NCBI GenBank assembly: GCA_019058315.1
Contig: JAHPZH010000007.1
Location: 96,001-160,000, forward strand
DNA from: Candidatus Helarchaeota archaeon
GTDB lineage: Archaea > Asgardarchaeota > Lokiarchaeia > Helarchaeales > RDOG01
DNA: 64,000 nucleotides
Direction of reading: 5' to 3'
Position numbers and translations under genes: made by a program. Positions 12,722-15,878 of this stretch are shown here, piece after piece. The notes under the pieces are model-generated. The model did no database searches. It was not told the origin of the DNA and saw only the letters and a list, made by a program, of their open reading frames with translations. Each line of letters begins with the position of its first letter. Positions within the stretch are counted from its first letter, which is position 1.

Positions 12722-13687
12722 ATTTCACACGAAAATAACTCCTTCTTAGAGAAAACAGACGATTTCAACTTAAATGACGATGAAAGTTCAATTTGTCCGG
12801 AATGTGGGAGTGTAGAAATTACTAATGATGTAACTCGTGGAGAACTTATTTGCAGAAATTGTGGAATGGTCATAAGTGAAAAGCTTATTGATCAAGGTCC
12901 TGAATGGAGAGCTTTTAACTTAGAGGAAAGGGATAAGAGAAGCCGTGTTGGATCCCCTTCAACTTATACTTTACATGATAAAGGTCTATCTACTATGATA
13001 GATTGGCATGATAAAGACTCTTTTGGAAAAAAATTAACTCCTAAAAGGCGAGCACAAATCTATAGATTGAGAAAATGGCAAATACGAACAAGAGTTCACA
13101 GTTCTATTGATAGAAATTTGGCAATAGCTATGAGTGAATTGGATAGACTCAGTAGTCAATTGGGGATACCACGTGGTGTGAAGGAAAGCTCTGCTGTAAT
13201 TTACAGGAGGGCTATTGAGAAAAAACTCATAAGAGGTAGATCTATTGAAGCTATGGTGGGTGCCTCAATTTATGCTGCCTGTCGTATGAGAAAAATTCCA
13301 CGAACTTTAGACGAAATTGGTCGACACTCAAGGGTCAATAAGAAGGAATTGGGTAGATGTTATCGATTAATTTTAAGAGAACTAGATGTTCAAATTCCTA
13401 TCGCCAGTCCAATTGATTTTATTCCCCGTTTTGGCGCAGAATTAGCCCTTTCTGGACGAACTCAACGAAGAGCTGCCGAAATAGTAAACCAAGCACGAAA
13501 AACTGGTTTAACTGCAGGAAAAGATCCTACAGGTTTAGCTGCAGCTTCGATTTATATTTCTGCTATACTAGAGGGTGAACGAAGAACTCAACGAGAAATT
13601 GCAGAAATTGTTCACGTTACGGAAGTTACAGTTAGAAATAGGTATAAGGAATTAGTAAGAGAGCTTAAACTTAGAGTTGATGTGTAG
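12722..13687 (+). CDS. tfb: Transcription initiation factor IIB (TFB); inferred ATT start
   Basis: In-frame zinc ribbon [15 protein letters not shown] upstream of the track's Met, B-reader GPEWRAF, two cyclin repeats; SD GAGGTG at 12708-12713. Confidence 0.93.
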
Positions 13688-13719: not shown

Positions 13720-14019
13720 TTATTGAACAACAATATTTTCTTCAGCAAAACCTTCTTTTTCTAGAACATCTTTGACTATTTGTCGATGATCACCTTGTAA
13801 CACTATATATCCATTTTTATATGATCCCCCAGCAGCACAACGACTTTTTAGTCTCACGACTAAATCCTTTAAACGGTTCTGTTCAATCCCCTCAACTATA
13901 GTTACAAGTTTACCATATTTACGCTTTTCAACTTTTATCTTAATTTCTTTTTCTTCTTTGGCTATTTCTCCACACATGCACAAATCTTTAGGTAACGAAC
14001 ATTTTGGACATATTTCTAT
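13720..14019 (-). CDS. sui1: Translation initiation factor aIF1/SUI1; inferred ATA start
   Basis: EICPKCSLPKDLCMCGEIAKE, KYGKLVTIVEG, LKSRCAAGG, LQGDHR. Confidence 0.92.
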   Translation of the reverse strand: MEICPKCSLPKDLCMCGEIAKEEKEIKIKVEKRKYGKLVTIVEGIEQNRLKDLVVRLKSRCAAGGSYKNGYIVLQGDHRQIVKDVLEKEGFAEENIVVQ

Positions 14020-14291
14020 ATCTTTTCTCTCCTGGGTCGCTTTTGAAAAAACATCTTTTTGTAATTATAATAATTCTATGTTTATTTGTTCCTTATATTT
14101 TTTATTGTACTTATTGAACTCAAATTATATAATATTTGCTTGAATTTTTAACAAATATTTGATAATTCAAGTCAATAAATATTTGTATTTGAGCAAAATA
14201 AAGTAAATGGCGCCGAATTTGAAATAAATGTATTGAAATTTGATGTGTTTAAAGTACCATTTTCAAAAAAACAAAAATTGGTGAACTAAAA

Positions 14292-15878
14292 ATAGTTAAA
14301 ACATTAATTATAGATGCATTAAGGTCTGAAAAGGGAGTAAAACGTTTCACAAGGGATTTTATCGGAGCAGGACCTCGAACCATTGCGGGAATTCTTGAAG
14401 GTTATGAAATAAACTCACAAATAGTTCACCCTGAAAATTTGAAAAAGAATGAGCTTACAGACAGTGATTTCTTATTTATAAGCGCAATGACTTTAGACTT
14501 GATAGCTGTAAGTAAAATCATTAGAAAATGGAAGAAATACAATAATAAGCCAATCCTAATAGGAGGTCCGATTACATCCAATCCATTTGATTTAAAACCA
14601 CTTGAATTCGATTTAGCTTTTATGGGTGAAAGTGAAGATACACTTGAAAAAATAATCCAGATCGGATTAAAAGATGGAAATCTGCCTTCTTATTCTAAAT
14701 TAAAAGAAATTAATGGAATATTCTACCGGAAAGATAATGATTTAATGATAAATGATACCAAATCTTATATTTCAAAGGAAACTTTAAATAACTTTCAGCC
14801 TTCGGTAGAGAGAATTACAGATTATCCTTATTATTTTATAGCAAGAGTTTATGTTGAGTGTATCCGTGGCTGTTCAAATTTTTTACGTCCAACTATTAAA
14901 CTAAACGAAAATATCGAATGTAATAATTGCGGAAATTGTAATGATAGTCTTGATAAAAGATTAAATTGTCCCCAAAACATTCCACCTGGATGTGGTTTTT
15001 GTTCAGTTCCAGCAGTATATGGGCCTCCGAGGAGTCGATATGTTTCTAATATTGTAAATGAAATTAAGGGATTAATTGGTAAAAAAGTTCGAAGATTTGT
15101 TCTTGGGGGTTCTGATTTTTTGGATTATGAAAGAGATGATCTAGTAAAACCGATGCCCTTGACTGATCCTTACCAGCCCCCTCCCAATAGTGAAAAAATT
15201 GAGGAATTATTATCCGAAATTTCTTTAATTCCTGAGATTAAGAATAAGAAAGCCTATATTTTTATTGAAAATATAAAGGCTTGTTTATTCTCTAAAGAAA
15301 TTGCGAAAATTATTTCAAAATATATTCCAAATACCTCAGTTTCAATAGGATGCGAATCAGGGTCAAATGATTATCTAAAATCGATAGGAAAACCTTCAGC
15401 AGTTGAAGATATGATCCAAACAGTCCGAATTTGTAAAGAATTTGGTATAAGAACACATTGTTATTTTATTCACGGATTGCCTAACCAAAATAGTTCTGTA
15501 TTAAAAGAAACCAAGCAGCTAATGGAAAAATTAGAAAAAATTGGAACTGATAAGATTACAATTTATAAATTTAAACCGCTTCCAAAGAGTTCGTTTGAGA
15601 AATTTGATTATAAAAGTTATAAATTATCAGAACAAATAAAAAAGTTAGCAATTAAAATTAATTATAATAGGAAATTAGCTTTAATTGGTAAAAATTTTAA
15701 AGTTATCATCGCAGAACGTCATAAAAGAAATAAAAATGATGGAATTGGATATATTCTAGAGGGCGGTCCGACAGTTTTAATCAAAAATGGAGGAAAATTA
15801 ATCGGAAAAGAAGTTAATGCGAGAATCATTCGAGTACTTTCTGATAAATTTGTAGAAGGAGAAATTAATAATCAATAA
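14292..15878 (+). CDS. Archaeal B12-binding-like/radical SAM/TRAM protein; inferred ATA start
   Basis: In-frame N-terminal IIDAL..RDFIGAGPRTIAGILE upstream of the track start; IGGP, ECIRGCSNF..PGCGFC, GCESGS; C-terminal TRAM-like region. Confidence 0.8.
   Translation: MVKTLIIDALRSEKGVKRFTRDFIGAGPRTIAGILEGYEINSQIVHPENLKKNELTDSDFLFISAMTLDLIAVSKIIRKWKKYNNKPILIGGPITSNPFDLKPLEFDLAFMGESEDTLEKIIQIGLKDGNLPSYSKLKEINGIFYRKDNDLMINDTKSYISKETLNNFQPSVERITDYPYYFIARVYVECIRGCSNFLRPTIKLNENIECNNCGNCNDSLDKRLNCPQNIPPGCGFCSVPAVYGPPRSRYVSNIVNEIKGLIGKKVRRFVLGGSDFLDYERDDLVKPMPLTDPYQPPPNSEKIEELLSEISLIPEIKNKKAYIFIENIKACLFSKEIAKIISKYIPNTSVSIGCESGSNDYLKSIGKPSAVEDMIQTVRICKEFGIRTHCYFIHGLPNQNSSVLKETKQLMEKLEKIGTDKITIYKFKPLPKSSFEKFDYKSYKLSEQIKKLAIKINYNRKLALIGKNFKVIIAERHKRNKNDGIGYILEGGPTVLIKNGGKLIGKEVNARIIRVLSDKFVEGEINNQ

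Follow-up and report, generated by a model that had tools for sequence, protein, structure and literature searches.

Negative feedback of a translation factor on its own synthesis has been described in more than one form. The bacterial gene infC, which encodes IF3, begins in Escherichia coli with an AUU codon and is subject to translational autorepression, and prfB, the gene of RF2, is autoregulated through a +1 frameshift. No aIF1 from an archaeon is known to be under such feedback. The eukaryotic factor eIF1 is encoded behind an AUG in poor Kozak context and is under negative autoregulation, according to the account of Ivanov et al. 2010 given in PMC6237735. On the archaeal side, in vitro work on S. 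solfataricus showed its aIF1 to discriminate against AUU (Hasenohrl et al., cited in PMC4705826 and PMC6237735) and, as described for S. solfataricus and P. abyssi, the factor acts in vitro on the archaeal 30S subunit against non-canonical codons, AUU among them (PMC4705826, PMC6237735). In these two articles and in a 2020 review (PMC7531240), neither a near-cognate start nor an autoregulation of the aIF1 gene is mentioned, and a search of the literature found no paper on either property of archaeal aIF1; self-limitation of a fidelity factor through the weak start of its own gene is known in bacteria (IF3) and in eukaryotes (eIF1), with no archaeal report found.

The locus considered here lies in a window, i.e., the whole 64,000-nucleotide stretch of DNA that was analysed, belonging to an archaeon of the class Lokiarchaeia (Asgard), whose assembly (G000) comprises 5.79 Mb in 12 contigs with ~30% GC, in which aIF1 is present in single copy so that no paralogue with a normal start exists. 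It resembles infC insofar as a factor that rejects non-canonical starts appears to be encoded behind a near-cognate AUN codon with a good Shine-Dalgarno (SD) sequence, and insofar as relatives have kept the weak start; on the other hand, IF3 and aIF1 are unrelated proteins. With eIF1, its homologue by virtue of the SUI1 domain, aIF1 would share a suboptimal start that is sensed by the stringency factor itself, but the start of eIF1 is a cognate AUG in a weak context reached by scanning, whereas the codon proposed here is near-cognate and positioned by an SD. The likeness to prfB would consist in a translation factor that senses how active it is on the mRNA encoding it, via a short upstream frame. 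The features on which the comparison is based are collected in the table.

Table. Features of the aIF1 locus and genes with putative near-cognate starts in the same genome (positions are those of the window)
Feature	Position	Strand	Remark
aIF1/SUI1 CDS, ATA to TAA, 99 codons + stop	13720..14019	(-)	Pfam and NCBIfam profile matches
Proposed start codon ATA (AUA)	14017..14019	(-)	sole near-cognate codon at SD spacing
Shine-Dalgarno AGGAG	14029..14033	(-)	9 nt upstream of ATA
Zinc-knuckle codons CPKC...CMC	13972..14010	(-)	5' of or across first canonical codons (TTG 13983, ATG 13977)
uORF ATG...TAG (MFFQKRPRREKI*), out of frame	14016..14054	(-)	stop overlaps ATA as ATAG; probably incidental
T6 run following uORF ATG	14046..14051	(-)	one extra T would fuse uORF ATG to aIF1
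Mini-ORF MSKMFVT*, out of frame within CDS	13988..14011	(-)	incidental
TFB gene, proposed start ATT 12722 behind GAGGTG 12708-13 (8 nt)	12722..13687	(+)	Zn ribbon upstream of first canonical codon
B12-binding/radical-SAM gene adjoining aIF1, proposed start ATA 14292 behind GGTGA 14280-84 (7-nt spacer)	14292..15878	(+)	Pfam boundary case
Amine oxidase, putative start ATT			Rossmann motif from residue 5; first canonical codon at residue 72
Radical-SAM protein, putative start ATC			Pfam boundary case
DUF2804 protein, putative start CTG			Pfam boundary case
CBM96 protein, putative start ACG			Pfam boundary case
Fe-S assembly protein			ORF without any canonical codon; Pfam boundary case
Prenyltransferase-like protein, putative start ATA			Pfam boundary case

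The SUI1 frame, on the minus strand, has its stop at TAA 13722-20; upstream it remains open as far as another TAA at 14067-65, after which it translates as LQKDVFSKATQERKDIEICPKCSLPKDLCMC... (also given as LQKDVFSKATQERKDIEICPKCSLPKDLCMCGEIAK...). An earlier note on this DNA had claimed that this closed frame offers no canonical start before the zinc knuckle, and this is borne out, the first in-frame ATG, GTG or TTG being the TTG at 13983, inside the CxxC...CxC motif. The identity of the protein is given by the matches to Pfam SUI1 (PF01253; 67.9 bits against a cut-off of 25.5) and to NCBIfam NF002096 (124.3 bits against a cut-off of 98), residues 2–98, numbered from the ATA, covering profile positions 3–101. 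The N-terminus predicted from the ATA, M-E-I-C-P-K-C..., compares well with that of the orthologues started at ATG, in which three to five residues precede the first cysteine (M-G-E-I-C, M-S-E-I-C, M-E-E-D-I-C), and the knuckle cysteines C2, C5, C12 and C14 are invariant across 20 Asgard sequences.

The claim that AGGAG 14033-29 stands 9 nt ahead of ATA 14019-17 likewise held; the 9-nt spacer (14028-20) lies within the modal spacing of the genome, in whose 3017 long ORFs the frequency of GGAG peaks at 7–10 nt before the start (53, 97, 63 and 57 cases versus ~10 elsewhere), and the 3' end of the 16S rRNA, GGAUCACCUCCU, carries the anti-SD CCUCCU. Translation from a near-cognate codon, as the same note had proposed, is supported, ATA 14019 being by far the best candidate, and aIF1 is very probably translated from AUA 14019-17 as positioned by the AGGAG. 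A reassignment of AUA to methionine was considered and rejected, ATA being among the commonest codons of the genome and aligning with the ATT and ATC isoleucine codons of relatives. The leader of aIF1 does not fold better than shuffled sequence (z = +0.54) and has no Rfam match at E <= 1.

The comparison with the nearest relative (L002), a member of the same family with 60% protein identity in aIF1, bears directly on the position of the start. Its start region reads AAGGAGAGA TAA GTT ATA GAG ATT TGC, so that SD, 9-nt spacing and ATA are all shared, and the in-frame TAA found two codons upstream of the ATA excludes a longer N-terminus in that organism. The 15 codons following the ATA (across EICPKCSLPKDLCMC) differ from those of L002 synonymously at 10 codons and non-synonymously at none, from which the knuckle is judged to be under strong purifying selection. 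This finding weighs heavily against the alternative, hardly credible in our estimation, that translation begins at TTG 13983 or at ATG 13977 to yield an aIF1 without a complete zinc knuckle. These are indeed the first canonical codons, of which a gene caller would select one, but neither has an SD, the CxxC...CxC knuckle would be split, and the 12 codons upstream are identical in protein sequence to those of L002 despite 10 synonymous differences, the TTG itself being replaced by TTA; the purely synonymous changes, together with the TTG → TTA replacement, indicate that the knuckle is translated and that the protein starts ahead of the first canonical codons. Furthermore, in the stretch AGGAGAGAnAAGnT-ATA-GA, 15 of 17 positions are identical in the two genomes, a degree of conservation exceeding that of synonymous sites, and since the DNA further upstream is unalignable, this points to selection acting on the initiation region.

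The strain variants lead to the same reading frame. Contigs from three runs and two studies were compared with the window, the strains of the other study being ~1–2% diverged. Three variants fall in the N-terminal codons, 14011 T>A (ATA → ATT), 14002 T>C (AAA → AAG) and 13996 C>T (TCG → TCA), each of them synonymous in the aIF1 frame. The same contigs are relevant for the possibility that synthesis begins at ATG 14054 and that the aIF1 frame is reached through an extra T, owing to slippage during transcription, to a –1 slip of the ribosome or to a mistake in the assembly, with MFFSKATQERKDIEIC... as the product; a single additional T would in fact fuse the two frames, and one P-site slip, UUU to UUU, could be imagined. 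The earlier note had named an extra T in the T6 run as a refuting observation, and none was found: X1, one contig from the source sample, displays zero differences, and record 4 of X2 and records 12 and 13 of X3, which cross 14016-14054, contain zero gaps, the frame thus being free of indels in the source-sample contig and in two runs of another study. The missing ATG is not an assembly error at the T6 run. As to slippage, the fusion peptide would be interrupted in L002 by an in-frame TAA, the segment VFSKATQERKD has no counterpart in any relative, and the frame relation is +1 in one large family of relatives (f4, see below) and –1 here, so that no shared frameshift exists. With neither a conserved slippery site nor a common frame relation, the locus departs in this respect from prfB, and the frameshift reading, which we regard as very improbable, is largely refuted by the comparative data. 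Initiation at the AUA under guidance of the SD is, as judged from these comparisons, the only reading with which sequence, strain variants and relatives all agree.

One strain contig (record 14 of X3) carries a 9-nt insertion, TTGTAGTTA, at 14088 in the intergenic region between aIF1 and the radical-SAM gene, which fits a non-coding nature of the DNA upstream of the uORF.

A uORF whose stop overlaps the ATA had also been claimed, and it is present in the sequence (ATG 14054-52, TAG 14018-16); what did not stand is its role as a conserved part of a device. Upstream out-of-frame ORFs with a stop overlapping the start occur at 23.7% of 637 canonical starts led by an SD, the rates being 24% for near-cognate candidates and 13% for control codons, and no counterpart of the uORF exists in L002 or in at least nine other near-cognate lineages. 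SD and near-cognate start recur among relatives; the uORF is not conserved. These data must be set against a mechanism in which AUA initiation depends on the uORF, namely on termination at TAG 14016 followed by re-initiation in an AUGA-type coupling. The ATAG overlap is real, and short uORFs ending on the near-cognate start are found also in the f4 members that have ATT (75 of 76, with a GTG uORF of five codons whose TAA overlaps the ATT) and in family f2; however, the uORF of the window has no SD of its own, the overlap falls within the base rate of 13–24%, the f4 members having ATC are, like L002 and the nine or more lineages just mentioned, devoid of a uORF, and the start of the f2 and f4 uORFs is the GTG of the SD-like motif itself. 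Coupling of this kind is therefore deemed improbable, and the uORF is probably incidental.

A comparable conclusion applies to the out-of-frame mini-ORF MSKMFVT, whose presence (ATG 14011-09, TAA 13990-88) was correctly noticed but which is a by-product of the Ile-Cys codons ATA-TGT, from which its ATG arises at a distance of 17 nt from the SD. One strain has ATT-TGT at this site (14011 T>A) and the corresponding frame of L002 reads TTG CCC TAA, i.e., it is not kept. From the comparative evidence, uORF and mini-ORF are both bystanders of the SD-led AUA.

The weak start of aIF1 extends far beyond the window. In a sample of 30 loci of the class, the related genomes being non-independent samples here as in all counts of relatives, 21 have no ATG, GTG or TTG between the upstream stop and the first cysteine. 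In five, the canonical codon is only a GTG in the SD-like motif, 8–9 nt before an ATT or ATA (in L012 and L014 the GTG is at the end of the motif rather than inside it, and in L007 an in-frame ATG occurs in addition, 18 codons upstream), while the remaining four start with TTG. A convincing ATG was found in none of the 29 class relatives, whose codons are ATA, ATT, ATC and TTG; an ordinary ATG at the homologous position of close orthologues, named by the earlier note as a refuting observation, was not found. The pattern is most uniform in f4, a family of Promethearchaeota/Promethearchaeia (Loki) MAGs sampled through 80 species representatives, where ATT (76) or ATC (3) are the only codons available for a start within the open frame, in 80 of 80 species. 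In all loci but one of this family the frame is open just 7–9 codons ahead of the cysteine, and in the alignment the ATT or ATC takes the place at which other genera have their SD-led ATT or ATA. In the other families of the phylum, of which 50 loci were sampled, ~27 begin with ATG, 13 with GTG and nine have no canonical start; these nine comprise AGGAGG + 9 nt + ATA in two families, SD + 7–10 nt + CTG in two families and one probable ATA. The feature is not obligatory, given that about half of the sampled genomes elsewhere in the phylum have ATG and a quarter GTG. As far as the genomes sampled allow one to judge, the near-cognate start of aIF1 is found throughout this class and recurs outside it, without being universal.

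Some peculiarities of the f4 leader (L130–L209, L011–L030) are worth recording. The sequence ~10–25 nt before the ATT is nearly invariant, TAAAGGTTGTGA, and contains an in-frame TTG-TGA "start-stop" in addition to the out-of-frame GTG uORF of five codons, its TAA overlapping the ATT; the GTGA is placed 9 nt from the ATT, versus the 4–6 nt usual in G000. This leader may represent a variant SD, a site of re-initiation or an element close to the promoter. Several contigs that bear a Loki-type aIF1 with 90–100% identity to f4 (L139, on DATKTW010000159.1, as well as L130, L134, L141, L144 and others) carry titles such as Nanopelagicaceae bacterium, Odin-, Thor-, Hermod- or Hodarchaeota, and are probably mis-binned or mislabelled.

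The near-cognate start is by no means confined to aIF1 in this genome. Both neighbours of the gene belong here: the convergent TFB gene has no ATG, GTG or TTG before the codons of its Zn ribbon (ICPECG...CRNCG), and in the divergent radical-SAM gene 49 conserved codons precede the first canonical codon, so that this gene probably starts at ATA 14292 rather than at TTG 14439. In TFB, an out-of-frame ATG at 12780 would join the frame given one extra A in AAA, and the radical-SAM neighbour has a TRAM-like C-terminus and scores below all NCBIfam cut-offs. In a scan of the whole genome, limited to codons with positive coding potential that precede the first canonical start by 10 codons or more, a strong and correctly spaced SD precedes 50/2478 near-cognate codons versus 122/13206 other codons (odds ratio 2.2, p=1e-5), which amounts to an SD-linked near-cognate excess of ~27. 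Without the filter for coding potential this SD-linked scan yielded no clear signal, and a scan extended to all in-frame codons was swamped by intragenic SD-like motifs. Pfam domain boundaries back at least seven near-cognate starts (see table), and when a mixture model is fitted to how far the first canonical codon lies from the upstream stop, up to 5.4% of 3020 long ORFs fall into the weak-start class (likelihood-ratio statistic 267), this figure being an upper-leaning estimate. The frequency of the codons in G000 follows the order ATT > ATA > CTG, ACG, ATC (e.g., L111, L112, L119, L122, L127, L116). From the combined sequence criteria, dozens of genes in this genome are taken to start at ATT, ATA, ATC, CTG or ACG. 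If the genome rate of such starts is ~0.5%, the adjacency of three weak-start genes is striking, whereas a rate close to the upper estimate of 5% would make it nothing unusual.

One element of the analogy with infC fails: AUU starts are near-unique exceptions in E. coli, but dozens of near-cognate genes, both aIF1 neighbours included, occur here, and the weak start is not exceptional in its genome. Since such starts are common, a weak start alone is no mark of a regulatory device. It is conceivable, then, that the AUA start is real and yet reflects relaxed start selection with no dedicated feedback, the weak codon providing a low constitutive rate or resulting from drift. The abundance of near-cognate starts in G000 speaks for this explanation, as does the fact that aIF1 starts at ATG or GTG in other Asgard families. 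A further point in its favor comes from the DUF2804 gene of one relative (L227, in G024), which reads ATA GGA AAA CAA versus the ATG GGA AAA CAA of its kin and indicates that sporadic weak starts are not confined to G000.

The control genes, on the other hand, behave differently from aIF1. TFB starts with ATG, GTG or TTG in 29 of 29 relatives, the syntenic orthologues of the radical-SAM gene have ATG in four cases out of four, at the homologous M-x-x-L-I-I-D-A-L, and DUF2804 has a canonical start in 17 of 18 relatives. For the amine oxidase, a canonical start is found in every one of the 16 relatives' homologues having the N-terminus on the contig and in the G000 paralogue L246, a comparison that is subject to a caveat of paralogy and in which L230 is cut at the contig end. 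By this comparison the weak starts other than that of aIF1 are young, and among the genes compared aIF1 alone retains a weak start class-wide, its conservation exceeding that of four controls. This contrast is the strongest computational argument for selection maintaining the weak start. Drift leaves unexplained why aIF1 alone should be non-ATG throughout the class and, in one family, in all 80 species, with the four controls mostly canonical, and why the SD-to-ATA stretch should be conserved above synonymous sites. Relaxed selection without feedback is accordingly regarded as rather unlikely, if not to be dismissed lightly. Instead, insofar as codon usage at the start can reveal it, the weakness of the aIF1 start is maintained by selection, relatives switching among AUA, AUU, AUC and UUG without ever settling on AUG.

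What the selected property might be is suggested by the function of the factor, which is encoded by a gene whose own start is the near-cognate codon it is expected to disfavor. The AGGAG located 9 nt upstream would place the initiator tRNA on AUA 14019-17, and 30S-bound aIF1 would destabilise the initiator tRNA on near-cognate codons; since aIF1 would act in this way, the factor, when abundant, would reject its own AUA, which scarcity of aIF1 would instead admit. The biochemistry of the S. solfataricus and P. abyssi factors, that is the discrimination against AUU and non-canonical codons in vitro, provides the missing step of such a loop. Furthermore, with dozens of weak-start genes in the genome, a single level of aIF1 would set their joint output, i.e., that of the whole weak-start gene set. 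The comparative pattern fits self-repression, aIF1 being the only gene compared at which a weak start has been conserved. For infC the feedback is proven, whereas for aIF1 we infer it by analogy; negative feedback may be considered the likeliest reason for the weak aIF1 start, with a confidence that stands at about even. The explanation as a whole, comprising an AUA start that is kept by selection for the purpose of negative feedback, seems to us slightly favored by the sequence evidence.

More tentatively, and with less probability on its side than the feedback as such, one may envisage that in Lokiarchaeia and in the recurrent Asgard lineages aIF1, placed behind an obligatory near-cognate start, acts as a stringency homeostat, that in genomes like this one it governs a regulon of tens to hundreds of genes starting with AUU, AUA, AUC, CUG or ACG, and that the system represents an archaeal forerunner of the eIF1/eIF5 circuit. 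If this were true, the eukaryotic stringency circuit constituted by eIF1 and eIF5 would have its forerunner in the closest relatives of eukaryotes. The class-wide near-cognate start of aIF1 would suggest either that stringency feedback predates eukaryotes or that any lineage with a fidelity factor can readily evolve it.

A practical aspect concerns annotation, in that gene callers accepting only ATG, GTG and TTG truncate aIF1, TFB and dozens more proteins, with the loss of zinc knuckles, Rossmann motifs and signal regions; an SD-guided scan for near-cognate codons can correct annotations of this type.

A special initiator tRNA was also considered as the cause of the relaxed starts and was rejected, a pattern search in an incomplete tRNA set having identified a CAU tRNA that has A1:U72 and GGG/CCC in the anticodon stem and is a normal initiator. 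The program aragorn finds just 26–40 tRNAs because many tRNAs carry introns, and with introns allowed it makes two SeC(TCA) calls. In the initiator-like and other CAU tRNAs (G000 C3:630541-630776 and C5 near 113899) the introns are located directly after the anticodon loop.
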